Below, in pieces: positions 817 through 17,167 of a stretch of 28,837 nt of DNA (position 1 is the stretch's first letter; each line of letters starts with the position of its first letter). The position numbers and the translations under genes were made by a program. Source of the stretch: an uncultured Bacilli bacterium (GTDB taxonomy: Bacteria; Bacillota_I; Bacilli_A; ML615J-28; CAG-698). The notes below the pieces were generated by a model that searched no databases, was not told the origin of the DNA, and worked only from the letters and a program-made list of their open reading frames with translations. The stretch is taken from assembly GCA_947627195.1 (NCBI GenBank), contig CANQVC010000022.1, positions 1 to 28,837 on the forward strand, given 5' to 3'.

Positions 817-1646
817 ATAGCTATACTCCCAAAGACTTGTCCACCAATTATTAAGCCCATACCAACACCTAAAGCAACAGCAGTGGCAATTAATATTGCT
901 TCCATTAATCTAGTACTTCCTGACATATAATCACCATATAAAGTATCTCTAACTGCATTAGTAATAGCAACACCTGGAACAAGAGGCATCATTATACCAA
1001 TGATTGCGGAATCAACATCAATTGATTGACTTATAAATAAACCAAATAATTTTGTAAATGCTATAGCAAAAAAACTAGATATTATCGCACCAACAAATGT
1101 CAACATAAAATCATTATGAATAATTTTAGGTCCATAATAATAAATAGGGGCTAATATCATTCCTGAAAGCATTGATATTACACATTCATAAAATTTACCA
1201 CCAATAAGTAATGTGAAAAAAGTAGTTGCTAATATAATACCAATACTTCTTAACCAAATTGGATATTGAATTAAATTTTTAATTTTAACTAAAGAATGAT
1301 ATGCTTCATCTAATGTAATATTATTAGTACAATATAATCTAGAAACTGTATTAACAGCATCAACTCTATTTAAATTAGTTGATCTACTTGATACTCTTTT
1401 AGTAATCGATAATGCAGTAATATTTTCATCTGATAATGTTAAAGTTAAACCTGTTGGTAAAACAAAAGATTCAGCACAATCAAAATTTGATTTTCTTAAA
1501 ATTCTCCCTGTTGTATCTTCTACTCGATATGTTTCAGCTCCTGATGAAATCATAATTTCACCAGCTAATATAGCTGTATCCATCAATAAACGATATTCTT
1601 TTTCATTCGACATTTTCTTAGATGTTTCATCCATAAAATTCACCAT
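813..1646 (-). CDS. Threonine/serine exporter ThrE family protein (YjjP/DUF1212-like)
   Basis: 277 aa. The N-terminal 'ILAGEIMISSGAETYRVEDT' motif is typical of DUF1212/ThrE, followed by multiple TM helices. Translationally coupled to the DUF3815 partner. Confidence 0.65.
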   Translation of the reverse strand: MVNFMDETSKKMSNEKEYRLLMDTAILAGEIMISSGAETYRVEDTTGRILRKSNFDCAESFVLPTGLTLTLSDENITALSITKRVSSRSTNLNRVDAVNTVSRLYCTNNITLDEAYHSLVKIKNLIQYPIWLRSIGIILATTFFTLLIGGKFYECVISMLSGMILAPIYYYGPKIIHNDFMLTFVGAIISSFFAIAFTKLFGLFISQSIDVDSAIIGIMMPLVPGVAITNAVRDTLYGDYMSGSTRLMEAILIATAVALGVGMGLIIGGQVFGSIAI

Positions 1647-1695
1647 GTATTATTTTATCACAAAATGATTAGAAAATATAGTTTTTTTTACTTTT

Positions 1696-4317
1696 TTATA
1701 AATTATATTTTTTAATTCTATATGTTGATAAATATGATGATATAAAAGACAAAATTAAAATAATTAAATAAATAATTATTATTTTAATAAATGATAATTG
1801 ATAAAAAGGAAATACTAAATTAATATTATTTACTAATATTAATTTTAAAACAGATAAAAATATGAATGTTAAAAGAAGAGAAATTATATACGAAAATGTT
1901 GTTAGTAAAAAACATTGAACAATAAATGTCATTTGAATATAAATTGAAGTTGTTCCCATTGTTTTAAATAATTTAATTGCTTTATTTTTAAATTTAATCA
2001 TAAATGAATAATGCATAAATGTAATAAAAAATAGTACAATTAAAGCAATAATAACAATAATATAAAGATATTTTATTAAATTGTTTTTTGTTGTTTGAAA
2101 TGATAGATATGAATAAACATTTGCATCATTAATTTTATATTTAAATTTATTGATATCTTTTTCATTTTTCACAAGTAATTCTTCATTATCTAATATTTTT
2201 TCATTTAATGATATTATATCCATATCTTTATCACTATTTGATAATAAAACAATATAATTATTATATGTTTTAAATGATAAACCAAATAAATCATATAATT
2301 GATTAAATATTGATGAATTTATATATAAATCATCTATTGTTGGTGAATAATAATAACCAATGATAGTTACATCGATTGTTGAATATTCTTCATCATATTT
2401 ATTAATTTTATATTTTAATGGTATATCAATTTTAAAAAATTCTTCATAAAAATTACTAACAATATTTTTGTAAGAATGTTCTTCATCATATTCATTTATT
2501 TCATTTGTTAAAATATATGTATAATAATCTTTATAATTAAAAAAATCAGTTGCTACTTTATCATAATTTTCTTTCGCAAATTCTAATATTTCATTATTAA
2601 TTTTATCATCAATAAATCGTTTAGTAGATGAATTAATGGGAATTATAATACCATTTTTATAATTCATATTACGAAAATAGACTGTATCATCAGGGCTATT
2701 TATACTTGCTTGAATGTTATTTTTATTTAAAATTAGTCCATCATGAATTTTTAAACTAAATTCTCCATCAATTATGCGATATGAATTTTTCATTTTTTCT
2801 TTATAAAAATTCTTTTTTAAATATATTACATTATGTATTCCCTTATTAAATTCATCTTGAAATTCCTTAAATAATCTATTATTAGAATTATAGAACATTT
2901 TTTCATATGTTAATGTTTGATATCTATCAATATTAAGTTTTGTATCTATTATTCCAACAATACGTAAAGGAAATTGTTCACCTTTTTCTTCAAAATATAA
3001 TGTTTTACCTATTATATCATCATATGTCTTAATTTCATATTGTTTTGATTCATACATATAATTTCTTTTTTGATATTGAATAAATTGATATTTGGTAATA
3101 ACTACTTCATCATATGATATAGGAGCACTTCCATAAAGTTCAAAATTACAATTAGAAATTAAATTAGGATCATATTCTATAAATCCTCTATTAATTTCAT
3201 CATAAAATATTGAACCTAAATTTTTCATATAATCATTTTTAAAAAAATAATCTTCTATATCATTATCTCCTAAATTAGGATATGTATTAACAAAATAATT
3301 ATATACAGGAAAGCCTTGGGAACCAAATAAATTATCAATGAATTTGGCATCATTTTCACCCATTCCATAATTTTTATTTGATATAACATCATCTTGTATA
3401 TATTTCTTTTCAAAACTTACATATTGAATATTATTTTCATATAATCCTTTTAATAACATCTTTGTTTCATCTATATATAATACTGATATCGAAAATAACA
3501 TTAATATAAATGTTATTATTAATCCTAATCCTAAAAATATTAATCTCTTTAGTTTTACTTTTGTCCATCCTTTTAATATCTTGATGAAACTTTTTACTTT
3601 TATCTTTCCTTCTTCTTCTTCTTTTTCTTCTTTTCTTTCTTTTTCTTCTTTTATTATTTTATCTTCTTTTATCTTTCCTTCTTCTATTTCTATCTTTCTA
3701 TCTATATATTCTTCTATCTCTTCTATTTGATGACTTACTATTATTACTAATCTTTCTTTACTTATTTCTTTTAATTTCTCTATTACTTTCTTTGATGTCT
3801 TTTTATCTAATGCTCCAGTTACTTCATCACATAATATTATATTTGGCTCTTTTAATATTACTTCTGCTAATGCTACTCTTTGTTGCTGTCCTCCTGATAA
3901 TTCATTTATCTTTCTTCTTTCTATATCTTCTATCTCTAATTCTTTTAATACTTCTTTTATTTCTTCTTCTTTTCTCTCTTTCCTACTTATCTCTAAATAT
4001 ATTTCTATATTCTCTTTGACGTTTAATTCTTCTATTAAATTATATTTCTGATATACTATCCCTATCTCTTTTCTTCGATATTCACTTAACTCTTTCTCTT
4101 TTAATTTATTTATCTCTTTTCCATTTACTTTTATTTCTCCACTATCTATTCTTTCTATTCCACCTATTAAGTTTAATAATGTTGTCTTTCCACTTCCTGA
4201 TCTTCCTACTATTGCTACCATCCCTCTATCTGGTAACTTTATATTTATTTCTTTTATTGCTTCTACTTTTTCTTTCTTTGTTTGATATGTCTTTCTTACT
4301 TCTTTTAGTTCTATCAT
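1696..4317 (-). CDS. MacB-type (type VII) ABC transporter, fused ATP-binding domain + large ectodomain + FtsX permease (paralog 1)
   Basis: Walker A GRSGSGKTT, signature LSGGQQQR, Walker B ILCDE, E/K-rich linker, TM1. The ~500-aa ectodomain has the MacB periplasmic-core motif (IVGIIDT). C-terminal FtsX-like TM bundle. RBS GAGGTG before the ATG. Confidence 0.8.
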   Translation of the reverse strand: MIELKEVRKTYQTKKEKVEAIKEINIKLPDRGMVAIVGRSGSGKTTLLNLIGGIERIDSGEIKVNGKEINKLKEKELSEYRRKEIGIVYQKYNLIEELNVKENIEIYLEISRKERKEEEIKEVLKELEIEDIERRKINELSGGQQQRVALAEVILKEPNIILCDEVTGALDKKTSKKVIEKLKEISKERLVIIVSHQIEEIEEYIDRKIEIEEGKIKEDKIIKEEKERKEEKEEEEGKIKVKSFIKILKGWTKVKLKRLIFLGLGLIITFILMLFSISVLYIDETKMLLKGLYENNIQYVSFEKKYIQDDVISNKNYGMGENDAKFIDNLFGSQGFPVYNYFVNTYPNLGDNDIEDYFFKNDYMKNLGSIFYDEINRGFIEYDPNLISNCNFELYGSAPISYDEVVITKYQFIQYQKRNYMYESKQYEIKTYDDIIGKTLYFEEKGEQFPLRIVGIIDTKLNIDRYQTLTYEKMFYNSNNRLFKEFQDEFNKGIHNVIYLKKNFYKEKMKNSYRIIDGEFSLKIHDGLILNKNNIQASINSPDDTVYFRNMNYKNGIIIPINSSTKRFIDDKINNEILEFAKENYDKVATDFFNYKDYYTYILTNEINEYDEEHSYKNIVSNFYEEFFKIDIPLKYKINKYDEEYSTIDVTIIGYYYSPTIDDLYINSSIFNQLYDLFGLSFKTYNNYIVLLSNSDKDMDIISLNEKILDNEELLVKNEKDINKFKYKINDANVYSYLSFQTTKNNLIKYLYIIVIIALIVLFFITFMHYSFMIKFKNKAIKLFKTMGTTSIYIQMTFIVQCFLLTTFSYIISLLLTFIFLSVLKLILVNNINLVFPFYQLSFIKIIIIYLIILILSFISSYLSTYRIKKYNL

Positions 4318-4406
4318 GTTATCACCTCACTTAATAATAGGTATTTACATTTATTATTATTATTCAATTTCACATTTTACTATACGATATATATATCTTT
4401 ACTATA

Positions 4407-4435
4407 ATTATATCAATCATTTCAATGCTTGTCAA
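4407..4435 (-). promoter_or_regulatory. Sigma-70 consensus promoter (-35 TTGACA, 17-nt spacer, -10 TATAAT) for the 1696..4317 ABC gene
   Basis: Minus-strand reading: TTGACA(4435..4430), a 17-nt spacer (agcattgaaatgattga), then TATAAT(4412..4407). It sits ~85 nt upstream of the ATG at 4317. Confidence 0.45.
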
Positions 4436-4517
4436 GACATTTAGCTTTATTTGCTAATTATTAATTAATATAAAAATAAAGGAATTATAGTAATAAACTA
4501 AAATTCCTAATTAAATT

Positions 4518-5678
4518 TTATTTAGAAACAATAAATAATTCTTTTAATATTTCTAAAAATACATCTAAAAATTTTGCTTTCTTTATTTTTAAATTAGTTA
4601 TTAAAGGTACTGTTTGATACAAATTACCATTAACATACACTTCTAATATACCTACCTTATCTGATGTTATTTTATCTTCTAAAATTATTTTAGTTGTTAT
4701 ATTGTTATTATCTTCATGATTTCTTTTTAATATCTTAATGTCTTTTGCAAGAACAATATCATAATGATTTGGACTTGTCATTAAATCTTCTTTTGAGGTA
4801 ACAATTGTACCCTTTTTAAGATATGTATCAACTGTATAATTATTTATTCCATAATTTAGCATTGATGTTATATCTTTTGTTCTTTGATCTACATTTTCAC
4901 AACCCATTGCCACAGCTATAAATCTATTATCATTTCTCTTAATTGTACATGTTAAACAATAACCAGCTTTTTGTGTCCATCCTGTCTTTAATCCATCAAC
5001 ACCTTCCATGAATTTAACAAGTTTATTAGTATTAACAAGCCAAAATCTTTTTAATGTATCTTCTCTAACATAATCTTCATAACGTGATGTATAATCTAAT
5101 ATTTTAGGATGTTCTTCAATTAATGTTGAGGCAATTATAGCCATGTCATAACTACATGAATAATGATCATTATCATCAAATCCATATGGATTAACAAAAT
5201 GTGTATTAACTAAATTTAATTCTTTAACTTTGTCATTCATCATTTTCACAAATACTTCTTCTGATCCACCAATATAAATAGCAAGGGTTAATGCTGCATC
5301 ATTTGCTGAAGAAATAGCCATTGATTTCAAAAGATCTTCAACGCTCATTTCTTCTCCTTCACTTAAATATATTTGACTTCCTCCTAATTCTGCTGCTTCT
5401 TTAGGTGTTTGTACCATGTCATTTAAATGAATAATTCCTGAATCTATTTTTTCCATTGTTATTAACATTGTCATAATTTTTGTCATACTAGCTGGTGATA
5501 ATTTTTCTTCTGATGCTTTTTCATAAATAACTTGTTTTGTTGATGATTCAATTAAAATAGCACTTTTACTATACTGTGTTAATGGAATTGTTTCTAAACT
5601 TTCAATTGCTTTAATATTAGGTTGTAAGCAAATAAAACAAATAATAATAATTAATAATAAAATTAACTTTTTCTTCAT
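4518..5678 (-). CDS. Serine-type D-Ala-D-Ala carboxypeptidase (PBP5/DacA-DacF family) with signal peptide
   Basis: Signal peptide MKKKLILLLIIIICFICL. All three PBP active-site motifs are present: SxxK (SPASMTK), SxN (SSAND) and KTG (LKTGWT). RBS GAGGTGAAG before the ATG. Confidence 0.8.
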   Translation of the reverse strand: MKKKLILLLIIIICFICLQPNIKAIESLETIPLTQYSKSAILIESSTKQVIYEKASEEKLSPASMTKIMTMLITMEKIDSGIIHLNDMVQTPKEAAELGGSQIYLSEGEEMSVEDLLKSMAISSANDAALTLAIYIGGSEEVFVKMMNDKVKELNLVNTHFVNPYGFDDNDHYSCSYDMAIIASTLIEEHPKILDYTSRYEDYVREDTLKRFWLVNTNKLVKFMEGVDGLKTGWTQKAGYCLTCTIKRNDNRFIAVAMGCENVDQRTKDITSMLNYGINNYTVDTYLKKGTIVTSKEDLMTSPNHYDIVLAKDIKILKRNHEDNNNITTKIILEDKITSDKVGILEVYVNGNLYQTVPLITNLKIKKAKFLDVFLEILKELFIVSK

Positions 5679-5774: not shown

Positions 5775-8669
5775 TTAAATATCATATTTACTTAATATTT
5801 CACTTGGTGTTTTACGTAATAATGATAATATTGGAATCATTCCAAAGGTAATAGATATAAAATATAATAAAAATAATACAATTAATGATAACCATATTGG
5901 ATAATAAACAATAGTAGTTATGGCATTTAAACTAATATAACTATATCTTAATATTATTGTCATAATTAGCCATCCAATAAAAACACTACAAGTTGTTAAT
6001 ACAATATTATCAATTAAAAATTTGAATTTTAAATTCTTTTTAGTAACACCAATTGCTCGATACATTCCTACTTCTTTAATTTTACTCATTAATGATGAAT
6101 GCATAATGAAGTACATACAAATAGCCATCACAACATACATTATAATTAATATGATAAAATTACCAAGAATATCTTGAATTCGATCAATAATTAAAGAATT
6201 AAAAATATCTTTAGGAGTTGAATATTCTATATAATTCATATCAACATTTAAATTATTTTGCAAATATTGTGTTGTTTTATCAGGGTCTGTTGAATGTAAA
6301 GTGATATAACCATTAGTCATAGAATAATCAGTATCACTATCATATCTAAATATGAATAAATTACTAGTTTTTCCATAATTTTTAGAAATATTAATATAAT
6401 CTTCATCACTAACAACAATACAATAAGTATTAGGTGTATGATTATATGTGATAGCATTCATTTCATAATAATAAAAATTATATACATCATTATATAAAGA
6501 ACTTATTGATATTTTATAATCGACTTGAAGATCAACTGGATATGAACCATGTTCTTTCTTATAACAATATGAAACATAATAATCTAAAATATCTTTAAAT
6601 TTATTATCAAGAAATATGGCATAAAATTTGCCAACTTCATATCCTTTTCCAAAATATAATATACTAGCATATGTTTGATCACATAACATTGGTGAATTAA
6701 AAAATTGTTTAAAATATTCATCAAATTTATCATAATAATAATCATAATAATCAAAATGATGATATGAACAATATTTACCAAAATCAATAGATTCTTTAGA
6801 AATATCATATTGTTCTTTAAGATAATCACTTTCTTCTTTTTTAACAATATTATTTTTTTGTAAATATTCGTTATAATTATTATAAATAATTATTTTGTTT
6901 TTTAAATTCATTTCAACGTTCGATAACATTACATTATCATTAATTTTATCAGCATATGTTAAACCATTGGAAGAAAAGTAGGCAATTGCTTCACCTTCAT
7001 TTAATTCTATATTAAAATCAGATGCACGATAAACATAATTTAAACCTGTTTTTGTCAAATTATATTTTGCTAATGATGATGTTGGTTGATAAAATGCAGG
7101 TTCATCACTAGCAACAACAGCAGCAATTTCTAAATTCTTGCCATCAATAATATTTCTCGCTTCTTTTAAGCCTACTAAATCACGATATTCTTCTATAAAT
7201 GGTACATGACCATTTTTAATTAATATATCAGCTGATCTTTGGGATATAACAATTTGATAATCTTTTAAATCATCTATTTGTCCAGCTAATATTTTATTAT
7301 TTTTAACTAAATTTAAATCCAAAAATACTCCATGAGTTTCAATTTGAGTTGATGAATATGTTTCATAAAAATCAGTTACAAAACTTAAATAAGTATCACC
7401 ATATGGTTCTATATTACTAACCCAATAATCATCAATGCCAGAATTAGCATCATTTATTAAATCATCAAGATGATTGGATAAACTATCATTATAAACATTA
7501 AGATAAAATACATTATGATTATATTGTTTAGATGCTGTTTGTAAATCAGAAAAACCAATTGAAAACCAAGCTGTTAATAAAACAATTGTTATAGCAAATA
7601 AACATAAAGCAATTGTAAGAATTCTCCTTGACTTCTTTTTATTAAAAAATAATTCTTTTAAAGATTGAATTACAACATTTTTGAAATGAAATAATTTTCC
7701 GTATGATTGACCATTTATTTCAGGTAAATTTTCCATTGAATTATTATTAGTTGATTCAATTTGATTTGAAAAACTTTCATCTAGTAATTTTGTTTCACTA
7801 GTATCATCTATAATGGAAACTCTATTATCTTTTAATTCTAAATATAATTTGCCTTGATGAGATACAAGCCTTAGATGAACTGGTTCATCAATTTCATTAC
7901 CAAAATATTCAACTTTTAAATGATTTGTATTTTCTTCTTGTTTTGGCAAATCGCCTAAATAAATATCATGTTTACTTTTTGTTGAATAACGATTTTTAGG
8001 TGCATTATCTTTTGTTTGAATAATTTTTCCATCACTTATTTCTATTACTTGATCACAGAAATGATCAACTAAATTAGCTTCATGAGTAACTAATAATACT
8101 AAATGATTTTTAGATATTTCTTTTAACATATTCATAATCATCAAAGTATTAGTTTCATCTAAATTTCCTGTTGGTTCATCAGCTAAGATAATACTAGGGT
8201 TTTTCACAATAGCTCTGGCAATCGCAATTCTTTGTTGTTGTCCTCCTGATAATGTATCAGGCAAACGATTTTTAAAATGTTCCATTCCAACATTTTTTAA
8301 GGCAATTGTTACACTTTTATCAATTTCTTCATTATCAGTAACACCACATAATCTTAATGAATCAGCAACATTATCAAAGCAATTAACATTTTTATTTAAA
8401 TTGTAATTTTGAAAAATATAACCTATATAACGATTACGAATATAATCTTTGTCTGATTTGATATTTTGTCCATGAATGTAAAGTTCACCACTATAGAATG
8501 TATCTAATCCACCAATAACATTTAATAATGTCGTTTTTCCACAGCCACTTTTACCAAAAATAGCAACCATACCAACATCAGGTAAATCTAATGTTACATC
8601 ATTTATTACATGGATTTCATTATTTTTACCTTTATTAAAAAACTTTTGAACATTTTTTAATTGAATCAT
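5775..8669 (-). CDS. MacB-type fused ABC ATPase / FtsX permease with ~600-aa ectodomain
   Basis: Walker A GKSGCGKTT, LSGGQQQR, Walker B ILADE, TM1. Large Y/N/D-rich ectodomain, then C-terminal FtsX TM helices. 4-nt ATGA overlap with the upstream 8666..10936 gene. Confidence 0.8.
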   Translation of the reverse strand: MIQLKNVQKFFNKGKNNEIHVINDVTLDLPDVGMVAIFGKSGCGKTTLLNVIGGLDTFYSGELYIHGQNIKSDKDYIRNRYIGYIFQNYNLNKNVNCFDNVADSLRLCGVTDNEEIDKSVTIALKNVGMEHFKNRLPDTLSGGQQQRIAIARAIVKNPSIILADEPTGNLDETNTLMIMNMLKEISKNHLVLLVTHEANLVDHFCDQVIEISDGKIIQTKDNAPKNRYSTKSKHDIYLGDLPKQEENTNHLKVEYFGNEIDEPVHLRLVSHQGKLYLELKDNRVSIIDDTSETKLLDESFSNQIESTNNNSMENLPEINGQSYGKLFHFKNVVIQSLKELFFNKKKSRRILTIALCLFAITIVLLTAWFSIGFSDLQTASKQYNHNVFYLNVYNDSLSNHLDDLINDANSGIDDYWVSNIEPYGDTYLSFVTDFYETYSSTQIETHGVFLDLNLVKNNKILAGQIDDLKDYQIVISQRSADILIKNGHVPFIEEYRDLVGLKEARNIIDGKNLEIAAVVASDEPAFYQPTSSLAKYNLTKTGLNYVYRASDFNIELNEGEAIAYFSSNGLTYADKINDNVMLSNVEMNLKNKIIIYNNYNEYLQKNNIVKKEESDYLKEQYDISKESIDFGKYCSYHHFDYYDYYYDKFDEYFKQFFNSPMLCDQTYASILYFGKGYEVGKFYAIFLDNKFKDILDYYVSYCYKKEHGSYPVDLQVDYKISISSLYNDVYNFYYYEMNAITYNHTPNTYCIVVSDEDYINISKNYGKTSNLFIFRYDSDTDYSMTNGYITLHSTDPDKTTQYLQNNLNVDMNYIEYSTPKDIFNSLIIDRIQDILGNFIILIIMYVVMAICMYFIMHSSLMSKIKEVGMYRAIGVTKKNLKFKFLIDNIVLTTCSVFIGWLIMTIILRYSYISLNAITTIVYYPIWLSLIVLFLLYFISITFGMIPILSLLRKTPSEILSKYDI

Positions 8670-10936
8670 TCTATCTCTCCTTTCAAAGACTCTTTAACGG
8701 AGATTTTATATAATTTCTTTAATTGACGTGATGTAACATATAGTGATATTAAAATCATTCCTAAAATAATTAAAAAATAATCTTGGAAATATAAGAAAGT
8801 AAACTGATCATTTAATGCTGGAACAAAAATAACTAATATAGATGCAATAGCAAAGAAAATAAATGCTGGAATTAAACAAATAAACATACGGAAGAACATT
8901 CCCATTTTAATTTCATTAGATTTAATGCCCATAGATCTAAATATTGATATATCTGATTTAAATGCTAATAAAGATTTACTTGTACATAAATATACAAATA
9001 TTGCAATAAATAAGACAGCTAATATATATAATACATAAGCTATTAATTTAATAATGGAAACGCCTAAAACTTCTAAAGCATCATTAGGAACTTCTTCATA
9101 TGACAATGTAGCTATATATCCCATATCTTTTAATTTAGATATTTGTTTTTTTGCTTCATTATTATCTTTATAAAATATTGATGCTTGATTATAAATATCA
9201 GTCATATAATTATCCATAATGTCATTAATAATATCAATAGAAATTACAAAAATTGACATACCATTATTAATATTATCGCCATGTAAATTATTAGGCATTT
9301 CTGAATATAAATCATCAATAGACAATTCTTTTGAATATGTTAATGTTTTTACTTCTGCCTCTATATATCCATAATATCCATAATAATATTTTTCAAAAGT
9401 ATATGAAAGTTCAAGAGTAAAATTAGATATTTTCCCAGCTTCAAGATCTTCTTTAAATAATATATCTTCAATATATATTTCACCTTTTTGATCAGAAAAA
9501 GATATACATAAATTATCTGCTGAATATAAATCAATATTTCCATTATCATATATTGTAGCAGAAATATTAGTATAACTAGCATTTCTACTAATATATGTCA
9601 TAAAACTTAAAGCATTAAAACCATCATGTGTCAATAAAGCTTTACCTTGTTTATTATTATCATAAAAATATTTAACACCAACAATTCTAAAAACACTAAA
9701 GTCTTTTAAAATAATTTTTTCTTTTAATAATTGTTCTGTTGAATAAGAACTTCTTACACCAATAGGAATATATAAAAATACTTCATCTGCTTTTTCAGGA
9801 TATCTACCATAAATGTTTTCACCAAAACCTTCATCAATAACGATATCTAATGCAATTGGTCTTCCACGATTTGCATATTTATCTGGATTATATATATAAC
9901 AATAACTATCTTCGTCAAATAAAAAATCAAAAGAATAACATTTTTTAGCGTTTGTTTCTTGTTTAATCAATTCTAATTCTTCATTTGAAATTGGTTTTCT
10001 ATCATTATTAGTAATAACAACTCTTCCAGGTAATGATGTAAAATAAGTATAATTATAATATGCTTCATTTACCATTGTTTTTACTAATAATGTTACACCA
10101 TATAAAGCAAGAATGGCAATAATCATAAATGCACACATGAATGTTGAAAGCTTAGGTCTTGATGTAAAAATAGCTTTACCTAAAATCATGCCATTTTTGA
10201 TAGATGGTTTTGATGATACATGTTTATCTATTTTTTCTTCAACTAAATTAATATCATTATTTAATTTATGATCATATTCAACAGACCCATCAAAAATACG
10301 AATATGTCTTGTTGCATATTGTTCTACTTCATCAAAATTATGAGTTACAATAATTAATAATTTATCTTTTGATACTTCTTTTAAAAGTTTAATTATTTCT
10401 TTAGATGTTGCAGCATCTAAATTACCAGTTGGTTCATCAGCTAAGATAATTGGGCTATCTTTAGCTAATGCCCGAGCAATAACAGTTCTTTGTTTTTGTC
10501 CACCTGATAATTTGCTAGCTTTTTGATTAAGATGATCAATCATATCTACTCTTTTAAGTAATTCGATTGCTCTATTTTTTCTTTCTTTTCTATCTTTAAT
10601 ATGGAATAATGCTAGTTCAACATTTTGTAATACTGTACAACTTTCCATAATGTTGTAATCTTGGAATATGAATGATATATATTTTTCACGATATTCTTCC
10701 CATTCTTTTTGGGTATAATGTTGAGTTGGACAATCTTCAACAATCATTTCCCCTTCTTCATATGTATCCATTCCACTAATTACATTTAATAATGTCGACT
10801 TACCAGATCCTGATTTACCTGTTATAGCAACAAATTCTCCACGATCAAATGATAAATTAACACCTCTTATTCCAACAGTTACATTAGAATTTGATACATA
10901 TATTTTACCAATATCTTTTAATGTTAATAATGCCAT
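8666..10936 (-). CDS. MacB-type fused ABC ATPase / FtsX permease (operon partner of 5775..8669)
   Basis: Walker A GKSGSGKST, LSGGQKQR, Walker B ILADE, TM1, large ectodomain, C-terminal FtsX. RBS AGGAGG before the ATG. Confidence 0.8.
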   Translation of the reverse strand: MALLTLKDIGKIYVSNSNVTVGIRGVNLSFDRGEFVAITGKSGSGKSTLLNVISGMDTYEEGEMIVEDCPTQHYTQKEWEEYREKYISFIFQDYNIMESCTVLQNVELALFHIKDRKERKNRAIELLKRVDMIDHLNQKASKLSGGQKQRTVIARALAKDSPIILADEPTGNLDAATSKEIIKLLKEVSKDKLLIIVTHNFDEVEQYATRHIRIFDGSVEYDHKLNNDINLVEEKIDKHVSSKPSIKNGMILGKAIFTSRPKLSTFMCAFMIIAILALYGVTLLVKTMVNEAYYNYTYFTSLPGRVVITNNDRKPISNEELELIKQETNAKKCYSFDFLFDEDSYCYIYNPDKYANRGRPIALDIVIDEGFGENIYGRYPEKADEVFLYIPIGVRSSYSTEQLLKEKIILKDFSVFRIVGVKYFYDNNKQGKALLTHDGFNALSFMTYISRNASYTNISATIYDNGNIDLYSADNLCISFSDQKGEIYIEDILFKEDLEAGKISNFTLELSYTFEKYYYGYYGYIEAEVKTLTYSKELSIDDLYSEMPNNLHGDNINNGMSIFVISIDIINDIMDNYMTDIYNQASIFYKDNNEAKKQISKLKDMGYIATLSYEEVPNDALEVLGVSIIKLIAYVLYILAVLFIAIFVYLCTSKSLLAFKSDISIFRSMGIKSNEIKMGMFFRMFICLIPAFIFFAIASILVIFVPALNDQFTFLYFQDYFLIILGMILISLYVTSRQLKKLYKISVKESLKGEIE

Positions 10937-11742: not shown

Positions 11743-14382
11743 TTATAGTTTCTGTGATATATATTTTTTTAAAGCATGTCTTGAAAAATATATAATAAGA
11801 ATTGAACTAATTACTAAACTAATTGCATATAATATTAAACATTTTAAAAATGTTAAATTAAACCAACTTGTTGTTAATTGATATGCATTTTTAAAATATA
11901 ATTCTAAAGAAGCAATTAAAATTTCAATTATGATAAAAGAAACTAAAAATGGAATAGTTATAATTAATAAACCTGCAAATAACAAAAACAAAATTAATGA
12001 TTTCTTGTTCATACCAGTTCTTCTTAAATAATAAAGACTTTTTCTTTTGGAAAAAACTGTTTGATATATATCTATTAATAAAATTAACGATATAATAGAT
12101 GTGAAAATTGAAATGATTGTACATATTAATTTCCATGTATTTATAGATGATTTAACTCTAAAAAGGTTGGGTTCAATAATATATGCTTCTAAAAAATTAT
12201 AAGATGTGTATTCAATCAAATCTTTTTGTATAAAATATTCATCTATAGTTTTATTATCATATATTTTATTTTTGTGACTAAAGTCTTTATAAAAATGATA
12301 ATCTTTTTCTAAATCATATGATAAGGCTACATATATTCTATCATATATTTGTGAATTATAACGAACATTTTTATATATATCAACAATTTCTGAACAGGCA
12401 TATGCTGTATAAATATTACTATTAATATCGTCATTTATTTTATTACTTTTCTCAAGATAAAACCCAACAAGATTAACAGGTGTCTCAAAATTATAAAATG
12501 ATAAAAATGTTGATGTATCAGATTTTTTTAATTTAGTTTCAATAGCCTCTTTGAAGAGATTTGCATAAGAATATTCTGGTTGAAATTTGTTTATTTCATT
12601 TTGTTTAATATAATAAACATAATCATCTAAATTAGATTCCTTTGTTTCTTTTTCAAATTCGTCTTTTATACTATCCCATGAATCACTAACAACTTCCTTA
12701 ATGTATGATGAAAAGAAATCATATTTTAAAATAACTATAATGCCATTTTCTTTATTTTTATCATCGATATATACAATTTTTTCATTTGATAAATCATTTT
12801 CCGTTTTAACATTTTCAATAGAAATTTCTTTATGTGTACATTCACTAAAATTTTTAATTGTACATATTTTATCTAAGTAAGTCTCATCATCACTATCATT
12901 ATTTAATTTTATTGAAAATGTATTATCCCGATAGCCAAGACTAAAATCTTCATCAATTTTTTCAATTGCTGCAATATTAAAACCTTGATATGTAAAAAAA
13001 AGATGTTTAAAATCACTTGCCTTAGATGTATCAATAATTCCAACAATCTTGAATTTTGGTTGAAAAGTATTACTTCCTGCATTATAAATTAAATTAATAA
13101 TATCATTATAATTGCTAATATTTTTAATTTCATTATCATATTTATATCCGAATTTTTTATAAATATTAAACCAATAATCAGTAATTAGAATTTCATTATT
13201 TGCTTGAGGCATATGACCACAAATTAAATTCAATTCTAATCTATTCATTAATTCATCATTTATTTCAACAAATTCACCAAGATCTCCACCTTGTATATAC
13301 TTTAATGCTTCACTATGAAATTCATCTGGAATATTACAAAAGTGAGAAAAATAAGGAGAATTATAAACAGGTATAGTTTCCAATCCATAATTATCATGAA
13401 TGTATTTAACATCTATTGCTGTTAAAACATAAGCATCACGCCAATTACTTGGCTCAGGAAAATAACTTTTGCTTTCTATTTTAATATATTTAGAATTTTC
13501 AGCATATGCACTATTAAGTTCAATTTTTTTTTCATCTAAAAACGAAACAGATATAGTAAATAATAATAATAAAAATGTAATTATTAAACCAAAACCTAAA
13601 AATATTAATCTCTTAACTTTTACTGTTGTCCACCCTTTTAATATCCTTAGATAACTTCCTATCTTTGTCTTGGTTTCTTTTTCTTTATTAGATATTGTCG
13701 TTTTATTTTGTTCAGATTCTATTGTTCCTTGAACTTCTATTTTCCCTTCTTTTATTTCTATTATTATATCTGCATATTCTTTTATTTCTTCTTGATGACT
13801 TATTATTATTACTAATCTTTCTTTACTTATTTCTTTTAATTTATTAAATACATTCTCTCCTGATTCTTTATCTAATGCCCCTGTTACTTCATCACATAGT
13901 AATATCTTTGGTTTCTTTAATATTACTTCTGCTAAGGCTACTCTTTGTTGTTGTCCTCCTGATAATTCATTTACTTTTCTTTTCTTTAGTCCTTCTATTC
14001 CTAATTCTTTTAATATTTCTTCTATCTCTTCTTCTCTTCTCTTTATTCTACTTATTTCTAAATATGTCTTTATATTATCTATTACATTTATTTCTTCTAA
14101 TAATTGATATTTTTGATATACTATTCCTATCTCTTTTCTTCGATATTCACTTAACTCTTTTTCTTTTAATTCTTTTAAATTTTTATTATTTACTATTATT
14201 TCTCCCTCTTCAAAACAATCTATTCCTCCAATTAGATTTAATAGTGTTGTTTTTCCTACGCCAGATTTACCTACTATTGCTATCATTCCTTTATTAGGTA
14301 ATTCTATATTAACATCTTTTAATACTTCTATTTTTTCATTATTCGTTGTATAACTTTTACTTAAATGTCTTATTTCTATCAT
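11743..14382 (-). CDS. MacB-type fused ABC ATPase / FtsX permease, tandem paralog B (ATPase module identical to paralog A)
   Basis: Walker A GKSGVGKTT, LSGGQQQR, Walker B LLCDE, TM1, ~500-aa ectodomain (FKIVGIIDT motif), C-terminal FtsX. The track ORF begins at 14394 (MRCQM...). The real start is probably the ATG at 14382 (MIEIRHL...), matching paralog 1, with GAGGTG 6 nt upstream. Confidence 0.8.
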   Translation of the reverse strand: MIEIRHLSKSYTTNNEKIEVLKDVNIELPNKGMIAIVGKSGVGKTTLLNLIGGIDCFEEGEIIVNNKNLKELKEKELSEYRRKEIGIVYQKYQLLEEINVIDNIKTYLEISRIKRREEEIEEILKELGIEGLKKRKVNELSGGQQQRVALAEVILKKPKILLCDEVTGALDKESGENVFNKLKEISKERLVIIISHQEEIKEYADIIIEIKEGKIEVQGTIESEQNKTTISNKEKETKTKIGSYLRILKGWTTVKVKRLIFLGFGLIITFLLLLFTISVSFLDEKKIELNSAYAENSKYIKIESKSYFPEPSNWRDAYVLTAIDVKYIHDNYGLETIPVYNSPYFSHFCNIPDEFHSEALKYIQGGDLGEFVEINDELMNRLELNLICGHMPQANNEILITDYWFNIYKKFGYKYDNEIKNISNYNDIINLIYNAGSNTFQPKFKIVGIIDTSKASDFKHLFFTYQGFNIAAIEKIDEDFSLGYRDNTFSIKLNNDSDDETYLDKICTIKNFSECTHKEISIENVKTENDLSNEKIVYIDDKNKENGIIVILKYDFFSSYIKEVVSDSWDSIKDEFEKETKESNLDDYVYYIKQNEINKFQPEYSYANLFKEAIETKLKKSDTSTFLSFYNFETPVNLVGFYLEKSNKINDDINSNIYTAYACSEIVDIYKNVRYNSQIYDRIYVALSYDLEKDYHFYKDFSHKNKIYDNKTIDEYFIQKDLIEYTSYNFLEAYIIEPNLFRVKSSINTWKLICTIISIFTSIISLILLIDIYQTVFSKRKSLYYLRRTGMNKKSLILFLLFAGLLIITIPFLVSFIIIEILIASLELYFKNAYQLTTSWFNLTFLKCLILYAISLVISSILIIYFSRHALKKYISQKL

Positions 14383-14395
14383 TTGACACCTCATT
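13563..14395 (-). repeat. Direct repeat copy 1 (~835 bp, ~99.8% identical to 16286..17118): shared ATPase-module cassette
   Basis: The antisense ORFs 13875..14297 and 16598..17020 translate identically. The two genes have identical N-terminal 277 aa. Constant offset of 2723 bp. I saw 1-2 synonymous mismatches, and one flank shows decaying similarity. Confidence 0.85.
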
Positions 14396-17105
14396 GAATT
14401 GTTAATATATTTTGATAAGGCATAATTTTAAATGTATTTTTCAATGGTAAAATTATACTACATAAGCTAAAAATAGAAATTATAATCAAAATAAATAAAA
14501 ATTTTAAAGTAGTTAAATCAAAAATATTTAAATTAACCAAATAATGACTATATAAATAACTATTTACAAAATAAACAGCAATATAGAATAAAATTAAACT
14601 AAAAATAATAAAGAAAATTATAAATTTAAAGCATTGTATAATATACAATATAAAGAAATCTTTATGTGACATTCCCATACCTCTTAGTAATCCAATATCA
14701 TTAACTTTCTCATTAATTATTCCACTGAAACAATAGCTTATTAAAAACAAACTAGCAAAAATCATAAAAACAGCAATTATTGGCGAAACAATATGAACAA
14801 GTGAATATATAGGACTATCATCATTAAGATCTAATTGTTGTGGGGAAATCATCACATATCTAAAAGATTCTATACCGTTTGGCAATAAATCTTTATTTGT
14901 CTTTTCTTTTCTTAAATCTTTAATCATTTTATAATCTTTTTTATAATTATATGTTAAAGGGATGTTATATGAATATAATTCAAAAAATTTTTCATCATTA
15001 TTATCATATATCGTATTAAAAAGTTCTTTACTAACATAAATAGGATTTGAAGCATTTGCATTTCCAGTAAGGTAGAATCCAACAATTTTCATATTTAAAT
15101 CAGTATTACTTCTAGTTTTCATAATAAAAGTTTCATTCAATTTTTTATTCTTAATTACATCAATAAAAAAAGAATTAACAGAATGATCTAAATCACATAA
15201 ATTTAGATAATTGCTATAAACATAATTAGCATATCCTTGAGGTGAATCATTATTATTTCCAGCAATAATTCCTGCTCTACTTAAATAATTTGAACGAATA
15301 GATGGATAAACTGAAATAGCATATTTATAAATTTCATCTTTTACATCTTTAATTAAGTTTGAATCTTCGTTTTTAATTATAGGAATAATACATTCATTTT
15401 CTTTTAAATTAATATTACCTGTTTCTCTATTTTGGTTATCAATATAATTTACAAGCTCATTACAATATGGATAAAGAGCTATAAATTTACCGTAATGTCC
15501 TGTATATACATAATTATTATACATATTATCACATCCAAAATACATATATGAATTTTCTTTTGTATATTCTTCTATAAAATTTTCTTTTACATAAATAGCA
15601 TTATGCATATTTGATAAACTCTCAACATAAAGTTTATCAGTCAATCGATATTCAGGTAAATCTAAATCATAAGGTTTATTTTCTAACTCACCAATATCGA
15701 TATTAAATCTTTCATCAATATTTGTATCTATGATTCCAACAACTTTAAATGACTGCTTTGGGGCTAAAGAAATTGCACTAAAAGTAATAGTTTTTCCAAT
15801 AATATCTTGATAATCATTTATCTTAAATGGTTTACCATCAACATGCAACGTTTCATACTTAATTGCATAAAAAGTATATTTTGTAATAACAATTTCTTCA
15901 TTTGTTTTAGGTAAAGTTCCATAAACTAAATGAAACTTACTTGATGTTAAAAATTCATCATTAAGCTCAATAAATTCTATTCCATCCCATAAATCAGAAG
16001 GTAATGTGAAAGTAGAAATAATATTGTTTAAAAATGTTTTATCATGAACAATTGAACTACAATTTCCTATTCTTAATAATCTTTGATTAGTTCCATTAAT
16101 TTTATATTTATCATTAATATATTTAACATCATCCATTGACAAACCAATTTCACATGATTCTGGGTCACGCCATTTACCATCAATCTTATATTCTTTACCT
16201 AATGTTAAATAAGTTGTATTTGTTCTATATAAGTCTTTGAGTAAAAGTTTTGTTTCATCTAAAAAAGACGAAGATATAGTAAACAATAATAATAAAAATG
16301 TAATTATTAAACCAAAACCTAAAAATATTAATCTCTTAACTTTTACTGTTGTCCATCCTTTTAATATCCTTAGATAACTTCCTATCTTTGTCTTGGTTTC
16401 TTTTTCTTTATTAGATATTGTCGTTTTATTTTGTTCAGATTCTATTGTTCCTTGAACTTCTATTTTCCCTTCTTTTATTTCTATTATTATATCTGCATAT
16501 TCTTTTATTTCTTCTTGATGACTTATTATTATTACTAATCTTTCTTTACTTATTTCTTTTAATTTATTAAATACATTCTCTCCTGATTCTTTATCTAATG
16601 CCCCTGTTACTTCATCACATAGTAATATCTTTGGTTTCTTTAATATTACTTCTGCTAAGGCTACTCTTTGTTGTTGTCCTCCTGATAATTCATTTACTTT
16701 TCTTTTCTTTAGTCCTTCTATTCCTAATTCTTTTAATATTTCTTCTATCTCTTCTTCTCTTCTCTTTATTCTACTTATTTCTAAATATGTCTTTATATTA
16801 TCTATTACATTTATTTCTTCTAATAATTGATATTTTTGATATACTATTCCTATCTCTTTTCTTCGATATTCACTTAACTCTTTTTCTTTTAATTCTTTTA
16901 AATTTTTATTATTTACTATTATTTCTCCCTCTTCAAAACAATCTATTCCTCCAATTAGATTTAATAGTGTTGTTTTTCCTACGCCAGATTTACCTACTAT
17001 TGCTATCATTCCTTTATTAGGTAATTCTATATTAACATCTTTTAATACTTCTATTTTTTCATTATTCGTTGTATAACTTTTACTTAAATGTCTTATTTCT
17101 ATCAT
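14391..17105 (-). CDS. MacB-type fused ABC ATPase / FtsX permease, tandem paralog A
   Basis: Same ATPase module as paralog B. The juxtamembrane ectodomain resembles paralog 1 (LDETKLLLKDLY vs IDETKMLLKGLY). C-terminal FtsX. Its TGA stop (14391-93) lies inside the RBS/ATGA of paralog B. Likely start ATG at 17105. Confidence 0.8.
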   Translation of the reverse strand: MIEIRHLSKSYTTNNEKIEVLKDVNIELPNKGMIAIVGKSGVGKTTLLNLIGGIDCFEEGEIIVNNKNLKELKEKELSEYRRKEIGIVYQKYQLLEEINVIDNIKTYLEISRIKRREEEIEEILKELGIEGLKKRKVNELSGGQQQRVALAEVILKKPKILLCDEVTGALDKESGENVFNKLKEISKERLVIIISHQEEIKEYADIIIEIKEGKIEVQGTIESEQNKTTISNKEKETKTKIGSYLRILKGWTTVKVKRLIFLGFGLIITFLLLLFTISSSFLDETKLLLKDLYRTNTTYLTLGKEYKIDGKWRDPESCEIGLSMDDVKYINDKYKINGTNQRLLRIGNCSSIVHDKTFLNNIISTFTLPSDLWDGIEFIELNDEFLTSSKFHLVYGTLPKTNEEIVITKYTFYAIKYETLHVDGKPFKINDYQDIIGKTITFSAISLAPKQSFKVVGIIDTNIDERFNIDIGELENKPYDLDLPEYRLTDKLYVESLSNMHNAIYVKENFIEEYTKENSYMYFGCDNMYNNYVYTGHYGKFIALYPYCNELVNYIDNQNRETGNINLKENECIIPIIKNEDSNLIKDVKDEIYKYAISVYPSIRSNYLSRAGIIAGNNNDSPQGYANYVYSNYLNLCDLDHSVNSFFIDVIKNKKLNETFIMKTRSNTDLNMKIVGFYLTGNANASNPIYVSKELFNTIYDNNDEKFFELYSYNIPLTYNYKKDYKMIKDLRKEKTNKDLLPNGIESFRYVMISPQQLDLNDDSPIYSLVHIVSPIIAVFMIFASLFLISYCFSGIINEKVNDIGLLRGMGMSHKDFFILYIIQCFKFIIFFIIFSLILFYIAVYFVNSYLYSHYLVNLNIFDLTTLKFLFILIIISIFSLCSIILPLKNTFKIMPYQNILTIQ

Positions 17106-17118
17106 TTGACACCTCATT
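16286..17118 (-). repeat. Direct repeat copy 2 (partner of 13563..14395)
   Basis: See copy 1. Identity ends abruptly just upstream of the RBS (17118) and decays gradually into the ectodomain-coding side. Confidence 0.85.
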
Positions 17119-17122
17119 TTTA

Positions 17123-17160
17123 AAAAATAGAGGTAAATAAAGGAAAATATTTACCTCTAT
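17123..17160 (-). terminator. Rho-independent terminator after the Big_2 surface protein gene
   Basis: Perfect 12-bp stem UAGAGGUAAAUA/UAUUUACCUCUA with an 8-nt loop, followed by UUUUUUAAAAA. It lies ~10 nt before the RBS of ABC paralog A. Confidence 0.55.
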
Positions 17161-17167
17161 TATTAAT

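Follow-up and report, generated by a model that had tools for sequence, protein, structure and literature searches.

A strong purine bias confined to the ATPase-TM1 modules of three MacB-type genes in an uncultured Bacilli bacterium, apparently maintained at the nucleotide level

Are the front ends of three MacB-type genes, whose composition departs sharply from that of their own rear parts and of the surrounding genes, a piece of grafted foreign DNA, or are they under an unusual constraint? The question is raised by a stretch of 28,837 nucleotides from an uncultured Bacilli bacterium (assembly GCA_947627195.1, contig CANQVC010000022.1; hereafter the window, meaning the whole stretch analysed), for which an initial annotation had singled out the ATPase modules of three MacB-like paralogs, here called macA, macB and macC, and had left both origins open. 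The window encodes five fused MacB-type genes (these three plus abc5775 and abc8666), all of which share a layout of an ABC ATPase, or nucleotide-binding domain (NBD), a first transmembrane helix (TM1), a large extracytoplasmic domain and three FtsX-type helices (Table 1). The answer that we favour, with a probability of roughly 0.55, is that in a gene family undergoing concerted evolution the constant part, NBD plus TM1, is subject to an actively maintained, nucleotide-level avoidance of pyrimidines, with escape from Rho as the leading candidate driver.

The plus strand of the modules had been described as almost pure C+T, and there is indeed an excess of pyrimidines, although not near purity: 3560..4317, 13563..14395 and 16286..17118 contain 77.4%, 70.3% and 70.3% pyrimidine, respectively, against 54.0 ± 2.9% (maximum 61.9%) in 758-nt windows outside the modules. 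On the sense strand the modules are about 72-78% purine (A.51-.55, G.18-.20, T.21-.25, C.04-.06; for macA A.55, G.20, T.21, C.04), compared with ~54% in the ordinary genes of the window, as in B. subtilis. Measured in 600-nt windows, the stretch under study peaks at 78.2% purine, and among 132 other loci (~1.8 Mb) just one, of archaeal origin, exceeded 70% purine on one strand (maximum 71.7%). We expressed the codon bias as an index of purine-ending codons over the degenerate families (four-fold boxes plus Ile), which gave 98/102 (96%) in the macA module and 94/112 (84%) in the macB module, the macC module having the same value. The controls all lay at 44-46%, namely 289/645 in the remainder of macA, macB and macC, 1134/2573 in 16 other genes of the window and 140/304 in three other ABC ATPase domains (Fisher p 1e-13 to 5e-29). 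The ATPase parts of abc5775 and abc8666 (5775..8669 and 8666..10936), which had been said to use ATT, GTT and GGT freely, are ordinary in composition, with a purine-ending fraction of 0.46.

Most of the codon preferences listed in the initial annotation stood up to counting. Ile is written ATA/ATT/ATC 43/0/1 times in the macA module and 38/2/0 times in the macB module (81 ATA codons of 84), versus 218/399/34 times elsewhere, where codons other than ATA are used freely; GTA, GGA, GCA and TTA/CTA are likewise preferred in the modules. For the dacA gene, a large excess of ATT over ATA had been claimed, and the true excess is modest (26 vs 16). Third-position purines amount to 0.76-0.90 over codons 1-300 of macA and 0.70-0.88 over codons 1-250 of macB and macC, compared with 0.28-0.58 in the rest of these genes and 0.42-0.60 in the others. 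In macA the G-ending share among two-fold purine-ending codons is 18% vs 8% (p 2e-4) and C-ending codons are not raised; since G rises at the codon end and C does not, the bias is towards purines, and not towards GC or A alone. At the RNA level the modules are nearly unstructured, with a mean minimum free energy per 150 nt of -6.7 and -11.0 kcal/mol vs -18 to -22 for controls. The difference C-G is -0.12 to -0.16 on the module sense strand and +0.12 to +0.16 on the antisense strand, in which T reaches 59-65% in 150-nt windows.

In order to locate the end of the bias, we determined the maximum-likelihood break in third-position purines along each gene. In macA the change-point falls after codon 292 (support 289-294, coordinate ~3442), with fractions of 0.86 before and 0.45 after the break and a log-likelihood ratio (LLR) of 72.7; it thus lies past TM1 (254-285), which is itself biased (0.80). 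In macB and macC the fraction falls where TM1 begins, after codon 260 (support 254-275), from 0.80 to 0.44 (LLR 50.6) and from 0.80 to 0.42 (LLR 56.7), respectively. The break had originally been described as coinciding with the ATPase/TM1 boundary, and these positions correct that description.

The description of the bias as a matter of codon choice is correct and also incomplete, since the amino acids shift too, with Glu over Asp and Lys over Asn. The ratio E/(E+D) is 0.86-0.87 in the modules vs 0.53, K/(K+N) is 0.83 in macA and 0.71 in macB vs 0.53, and Phe+Tyr+His+Cys together make up 5-6% vs 13-18%. In the macA ATPase the E+K fraction is 0.336, compared with 0.178 ± 0.023 in 116 family members. 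When 112 full-length family members were aligned, macA and macB had 52 replacements in common relative to the consensus, 36 of which raise and 9 of which lower the purine content (p 5e-6). Twelve of the 52 are located at sites that are at least 90% conserved (F35A, L54I, N82R, F87I, F89Y, L110I, I150L, R152E, A153V, P166V, D197Q, D213E), and among them Ile stands for Leu (TTA to ATA), Ile or Tyr for Phe in the Q-loop strand, Val for Pro in the Walker B ‘DEPT’, Glu for Arg behind the signature motif, and Glu or Gln for Asp. The catalytic motifs proper remain intact in the recoded modules, the translation showing GRSGSGKTT (Walker A), Q90 (Q-loop), LSGGQ (signature), ILCDE (Walker B) and SHQ (H-loop). 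These patterns indicate a pressure that acts on nucleotides, and not on codon choice alone.

Could the protein itself be the target, i.e., could selection for a charged, Glu/Lys-rich ATPase (as a solubility or interaction surface) produce the nucleotide skew as a side effect? The E+K fractions of the ATPases (0.33 in macA, 0.29 in macB) would suit such a demand, macA being ~5-7 standard deviations above the family, depending on the comparison set. However, it is the synonymous sites that are most biased (96%), among them those of Ile, Val, Gly, Ala, Thr and Leu, residues unrelated to charge, and the bias extends into the TM1 of macA. The synonymous-site data already contradict protein-level selection, which we regard as very improbable.

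The same bounded bias recurs in other organisms; the recurrence comprises few family members for which DNA was at hand, and the host genome itself was covered by a single contig. In an ENA assembly with 26.5% GC (L140), 86/113 codons of the family member P0398 end in a purine up to codon 285 vs 33/87 thereafter (p 6e-8), and the neighbouring genes range from 0.36 to 0.54. In a second genome (L142, GCA_964453965.1, 25% GC), two tandem paralogs each have 90/114 purine-ending codons in the N-terminal part vs a fraction of 0.55 in the C-terminal part (p 2e-5). Third-position purines step down near codon 300 in both organisms (50-codon bins, read by eye). These modules are 43-46% identical to those of macA and macB over the 285-codon module (~50% over the ATPase alone), and the synonymous codon identity with P0138 and P0398 equals the random expectation (z -1.6 to 0.1). 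Between macA and macB, identical residues use the same codon at a frequency of 0.79 vs 0.733 expected if codons were randomised under module usage (z 1.8), a comparison of limited power, since the extreme bias makes the expected codon identity high; their synonymous sites nevertheless look close to saturation. The Nei-Gojobori dS of 0.47 for this pair understates the turnover, because extreme codon bias caps the synonymous difference that can be observed. A weaker bias is seen in two further family members (L135, 0.60 vs 0.49; L136, 0.55 vs 0.45). Given that the same bounded bias is found in diverged relatives with randomised synonymous sites, we infer that it is maintained by selection or by a gene-specific process, and is not the trace of a decaying import. 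Aside from this, P0398 is interrupted by a stop after 548 codons, and it is at least 90% identical to P0006 in a differing context, one of the two genes following an FtsX gene and the other sufB.

A codon set for high expression, which the initial annotation had named as something that would refute its reading, does not account for the bias, because ribosomal protein S2, EF-Ts and RRF lack it in a low-GC relative used as proxy organism (35-44% purine-ending, ATT preferred over ATA). The same genes bear on a related idea, in which A-ending codons, which U34 tRNAs decode (the lysidine tRNA-Ile2 in the case of ATA), would set elongation speed or a dependence on tRNA modification until TM1 emerges and the chain is targeted to the membrane. 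Such tuning of translation would fit a break at codons 260-300, near or just after TM1, in four genes from three organisms, and an effect that is strongest at third codon positions. It does not, however, explain amino-acid changes that leave the wobble base as it was (Leu TTA replaced by Ile ATA, Phe by Ile or Tyr), nor the parallel rise of G-ending codons; sister paralogs of the same architecture are free of the bias, and the proxy organism's ribosomal and translation-factor genes avoid ATA. We consider translation tuning improbable.

Is the module, then, of foreign origin? A syntenic relative (L137, GCA_947627395.1), whose GlpK is 77% identical and in which gene order is kept on both sides, contains orthologs of just two of the MacB-type paralogs, abc8666 (57%) and abc5775 (53%). 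Missing from it are macA, which in the window lies between dacA and ThrE, and the g18837-g17168-macC-macB block, which lies between glpK and the DUF2752 gene, and no remnants of any of these genes are left. This comparison of gene content shows macA, macB and macC to behave as accessory genes. The window-specific insert (11743..19973) also encodes a secreted protein with a Big_2 domain (17168..18751) and another of 378 aa (18837..19973) that has no Pfam or PADLOC match, and the relative carries an HTH gene and an ApbA gene that are missing from the window.

We searched for a donor by an exhaustive HMMER scan of 1.84 billion representative proteins, which returned no module match closer than ~51% other than the self-match P0121; the best non-self matches (40-51% over residues 1-296) belong, as full-length proteins, to the same NBD-TM1-ectodomain-FtsX family. 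No close match to the module came from GTDB genomes or metagenome contigs either, nor from plasmids and phages, whose matches were weak and of a generic ABC kind, and no gene sampled elsewhere comes near 96% purine-ending codons (0.29-0.60). A foreign relic would be a module from a purine-loaded donor (an AT-rich thermophile, or a Clostridium- or Fusobacterium-like organism) that was grafted, spread by conversion and is now slowly ameliorating. The absence of macA, macB and macC from the relative speaks for such an import, as do the incongruent histories of N- and C-terminal parts described below, the sharp compositional boundaries, the composition atypical for the host, and the net loss of purines in macB and macC since their split from macA. 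The Glu/Lys/Ile-rich, ATA/AGA/GGA style of the module also resembles the purine loading of thermophiles. Against it stand the failure of all these searches to find a closer sequence than same-family members, a purine-ending level far above anything sampled elsewhere, the recurrence of the same bounded bias in two organisms at 43-46% identity with randomised synonymous sites, and the finding that macA and macB, near synonymous saturation, still hold 96% and 84%. A foreign origin is, on balance, unlikely. The earlier proposal of a foreign or constrained module is supported in part, by the module's own history and by the accessory status of the genes, and its alternative of an unusual constraint fits best.

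The separate histories of front and rear parts have a source closer to hand. A position-by-position comparison of the macB and macC tracts (Table 1) found 845/847 nt identical, and amino-acid identity falls from 100% within the tract to ~25% after it. The N-terminal parts of macA, macB and macC are mutual best BLAST matches (65%, which is the identity of the macA and macB modules, and 99%), the next best being at 41-48%. The rear part of macA is matched better by P0189, P0153 and P0219 (127, 113 and 110 bits) than by macC (84) or macB (57), and the best matches of the macB and macC rears are P0210 and P0153, respectively. Since N-terminal parts match one another and C-terminal parts match other organisms, the rears represent old, separate lineages and the fronts have been homogenised within the genome. 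The domain phylogenies are thus as incongruent as had been anticipated, and intragenomic gene conversion explains this, the donor being a sister copy. Concerted evolution is shown in this way for macB and macC, and would extend by implication to macA versus macB/C. A strain variant of macB from an ENA assembly (P0391) has the same module, a slightly different tract end (a macC-like ‘TISSS’), a 35-aa insertion in the ectodomain and a few substitutions, and it follows from the insertion and substitutions that ectodomains vary between strains. Tandem or multi-copy family members with identical 5' modules were also observed in other organisms (L142, 189..5389; L130/L140).

Conversion and purine bias do not have the same extent everywhere. 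In L142 the two paralogs match at every position for ~1290 nt, as far as codon ~430, and drop to ~50% identity thereafter, and their purine bias stops near codon 300; because identity overshoots the purine tract, the bias follows the NBD-TM1 region and not the conversion tract. This bears on the idea that the purine-rich sense tract is itself recombinogenic, forming R-loops or triplexes that stimulate the recombination by which the constant module is homogenised. In its favour, purine tracts and homogenised modules occur together in two organisms, the macA module contains a (GAA)n-like stretch with a 50-nt homopurine run, and the nearly unstructured module RNA would be free to hybridise with its template. 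Yet the identical tract in L142 is ~130 codons longer than the purine tract, conversion tracts are expected on the most conserved part of paralogs in any case, recombination between tandem direct repeats mainly deletes, and R-loops are here a proposal from sequence. We give a recombinogenic role little chance of being the explanation.

Other candidates were discarded. The antisense open reading frames (ORFs) that had been reported at 3792..4019, 13875..14297 and 16598..17020 exist and are Leu/Phe/Ser-rich, but they are by-products of composition and not real genes, because their breaks differ between macA (75, 49 and 51 aa) and macB/C (140 aa); no long alternative sense-frame ORFs are present. 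Avoidance of spurious promoters was rejected, since -10-like hexamers show no meaningful depletion (119 observed vs 138 expected over both strands) and are unchanged on the antisense strand, and so was GC-biased gene conversion, a strand-symmetric process, since G is up and C is not. Simple mutation (non-template deamination, 8-oxoG, replication skew) was dismissed by reasoning, as it would predict other substitution directions or non-local effects. Nor is the bias a general trait of low-GC ATPase domains, given the two sister paralogs, the third ABC ATPase of the window and six family members at 0.33-0.60.

How could such a constraint arise? In the model that we propose, macA, macB and macC are accessory members of a large fused MacB-type (type VII ABC) family in Acholeplasma-like Bacilli, with a constant front (ribosome-binding site, ATPase, charged linker and TM1) and a variable rear (extracytoplasmic domain plus FtsX helices). 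Gene conversion overwrites the front ends between paralogs whose rears diverged long ago, and a lasting pressure against coding-strand pyrimidines would drive nearly all degenerate codons towards A or G and exchange Asp for Glu, Asn for Lys and Leu or Phe for Ile, even at conserved ATPase positions, ending within a few codons of TM1. The agent would most likely act at the transcript level, through escape from the premature termination that Rho imposes when transcription is uncoupled from translation (‘runaway’). In Bacilli, a purine bias of the coding strand has been reported to protect transcripts from Rho when RNA polymerase outruns the ribosomes; Rho targets C-over-G, T-rich RNA, from which follow wobble purines, Glu over Asp and the termination of pyrimidine-rich antisense RNA (Dierksheide, Taggart, Johnson and Li, Nat Microbiol 2026; PMC13323073). 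The C-poor, T-poor, G-over-C sense RNA of the modules would by the same logic escape Rho, and their pyrimidine-rich antisense RNA would be a good Rho target. Rho as the agent is a hypothesis, drawn by analogy to that work.

Several points weigh against this explanation. No rho gene was found on the 28.8-kb contig, the sole host contig covered, and with one contig covered a genome-wide class of similarly biased genes is possible. The Rho model alone accounts neither for the sharp step at TM1 nor for the paralogs and family members without bias, of which there are several (L134, L001, L131, L132, both L137 genes, abc5775 and abc8666). Since the split of macA and macB, macA has undergone 15 amino-acid changes with a net purine change of +3, and the macB/C lineage 27 changes with a net change of -7; because macB/C lost and macA gained purines, the pressure seems uneven and may be relaxing in macB/C, and the direction agrees with their 96% and 84% purine-ending levels. 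In addition to the limited power of the saturation test, the junctions of macA and macB have independent support and that of macC has none, and a contig assembled from a metagenome could be misjoined at identical 850-nt repeats.

A more far-reaching version would make the front end a functional cis-element that ensures read-through into the T-rich rear, silences antisense transcription and promotes the recombination that keeps the constant module identical as the ectodomains diversify. Its RNA would be without Rho-loading sites and almost unstructured, and the pyrimidine template would favour RNA:DNA hybrids. We consider this, taken as a whole, quite unlikely; if true, bacteria would have their own analogue of a switch or constant region, placed inside a catalytic domain and paid for in conserved residues.

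Table 1 Coordinates of the main features in the window.
Feature	Position	Strand	Description
Window	28,837 nt	nearly all genes minus	23% GC
macA	1696..4317	-	873 aa; full-length MacB-type: NBD, TM1, ~460-aa extracytoplasmic domain, FtsX-type TM2-4
macA purine-recoded module	3442..4317	-	codons 1-292: ATPase, charged linker, TM1
Imperfect (GAA)n-like tract	3597..3728	-	in the Glu/Lys linker of macA; Tandem Repeats Finder
Pure homopurine run	3603..3652	-	50 nt, inside the (GAA)n-like tract
Candidate promoter of macA	4407..4435	-	match TTGACA-17-TATAAT plus extended TG, ~90 nt upstream of the macA start
abc5775 and abc8666	5775..10936	-	MacB-type paralogs of ordinary composition; internal controls
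macB	11743..14382	-	879 aa from the ATG at 14382; full-length paralog; Pfam ABC_tran 4.9e-33
macB purine-recoded module	13603..14382	-	codons 1-260
Gene-conversion tract, macB copy	13549..14395	-	13 nt upstream of the ATG to codon 278
macC	14391..17105	-	904 aa; directly upstream of macB, 8-nt spacer
macC purine-recoded module	16326..17105	-	codons 1-260
Gene-conversion tract, macC copy	16272..17118	-	partner of the macB tract

The ORFs of the window are intact under table 11, with TGG coding for Trp, and the Rfam scan gave no match. Pfam recovered ABC_tran (1.9e-34) and FtsX (3.9e-7) in macA and ABC_tran (6.5e-33) and FtsX (1.5e-7) in macC; the FtsX part of macB stays below the Pfam threshold, and macB nonetheless aligns over its full length with macA and macC. 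Hydropathy places the hydrophobic segments of macA at 254-285 (TM1), 744-776, 797-836 and 834-866, and the nearest solved ATPase domains are those of BceA, MJ0796, Spr0694 and MacB. The likely starts of macB and macC are the ATGs at 14382 and 17105, as upstream ATGs sit within the ribosome-binding site. The promoter candidate of macA is of sigma-70 type and, as a consensus match only, is complete (12/12), no better one occurring in 20 kb. A contig from ENA (L133), independent of this assembly, corresponds to window positions 1260..5547 and is identical except for one 26-nt indel, and since it reproduces this region the macA junction is not an assembly artefact.

The 26 nt in question (2183..2208, in the ectodomain-coding part of macA) are missing from L133, with 0 mismatches over 4.26 kb; the deletion frameshifts macA in that strain or assembly and splits it into two ORFs, P0121 and a 158-aa FtsX piece. 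The ectodomain-coding part of macA (1751..2750) has 15-18% GC vs 24-30% in conserved housekeeping genes, so the macA rear also stands out in composition, in the direction opposite to that of the module. Between the stop of the Big_2-domain gene and the macC start, close before the ribosome-binding site, lies a 14-bp hairpin (17126..17161), which a consensus scan scored as a plus-strand terminator, antisense to both genes; its gene-strand reverse complement has the same stem followed by a run of T. As the hairpin leaves almost no room for a promoter, read-through or attenuation is suggested for the expression of macC-macB. A promoter-like site (TTGACA-17-TATATT, 11/12; 14383..14411, plus strand) at the macC/macB junction, aimed into the 3' end of macC, may be a chance match in AT-rich DNA. 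Further along, 22015..23818 (minus strand) encodes an AbiLi-like ATPase (PADLOC AbiLi 8.9e-43; Pfam AAA_21) overlapping an RloB-like partner gene, which together look like an AbiL-type anti-phage pair and are also kept in the syntenic relative.

Three organisms share a purine bias to which even conserved residues of an ABC ATPase have given way, and the locus thus offers a natural, bounded test case of local purine demand and of the protein cost of a nucleotide constraint, with gene rears and unbiased sister paralogs as built-in controls. It also cautions that odd composition together with incongruent domain trees need not mean foreign DNA, as concerted evolution plus local selection can look the same. 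Finally, it draws attention to the MacB-like proteins of uncultured Acholeplasma-like bacteria, a large family, so far unstudied, whose members occur in multiple copies and have hypervariable ectodomains.

How does the locus compare with known systems? Like MacB and other type VII ABC (mechanotransmission) proteins, the macA family fuses an N-terminal ATPase to four FtsX-type TM helices and carries a large extracytoplasmic domain between TM1 and TM2. The extracytoplasmic domain of E. coli MacB is much smaller than the ~460 aa of the macA family. Unlike MacB, the genes occur as multi-copy tandem paralogs, and the window holds no fusion-adaptor or outer-membrane partner gene, a Pfam scan having found no HlyD, MFP or OMP family among its 19 proteins; such adaptor and duct partners are typical of Gram-negative systems, so this criterion may not apply to the host. 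Constant regions joined to variable regions under concerted evolution are known from Rhs core/tip genes and from the conserved 5' ends of mycoplasma variable surface protein genes. As in these families, a homogenised constant part with its own composition is combined here with divergent, surface-exposed rears in tandem or clustered, strain-variable genes. In the present case, however, the constant part is a catalytic ATPase plus TM1 instead of a leader for secretion or anchoring, there was no sign of inversion or cassette machinery, and all copies look complete and expressible.

With regard to composition, purine loading and an enrichment in Glu, Lys and Ile were reportedly described for thermophile genes by Lao and Forsdyke in 2000. 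The module is similarly rich in Glu, Lys, Ile and Arg, with ATA/AGA/GGA/GAA/AAA codons and a purine-rich mRNA, but thermophile loading concerns whole genomes, whereas the rest of these genes and their neighbours are rich in Asn, Asp, Tyr and Phe, typical of a mesophilic 23% GC genome, and the exhaustive HMMER scan found no thermophile donor. The closest likeness is to the Rho-avoidance purine code of Bacilli (PMC13323073), with which the modules share the purine excess of the sense strand, G over C, low T, purine wobble in four-fold codons, Glu (GAR) over Asp (GAY) and a pyrimidine-rich antisense strand. The published code is genome-wide and mild (~54% purine in B. subtilis; PMC13323073), compared with 72-78% purine and 84-96% purine-ending codons here, where the bias also occupies ~800-880 nt inside single genes, affects some paralogs only and replaces conserved residues of a catalytic domain. 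The signature of a purine bias that has been tied to Rho escape, so far as a mild genome-wide trend, is near-maximal in this locus and switched on and off within genes at a fixed architectural point, and we would class the case as an extreme form, acting inside single genes, of the purine bias already known in Bacilli.

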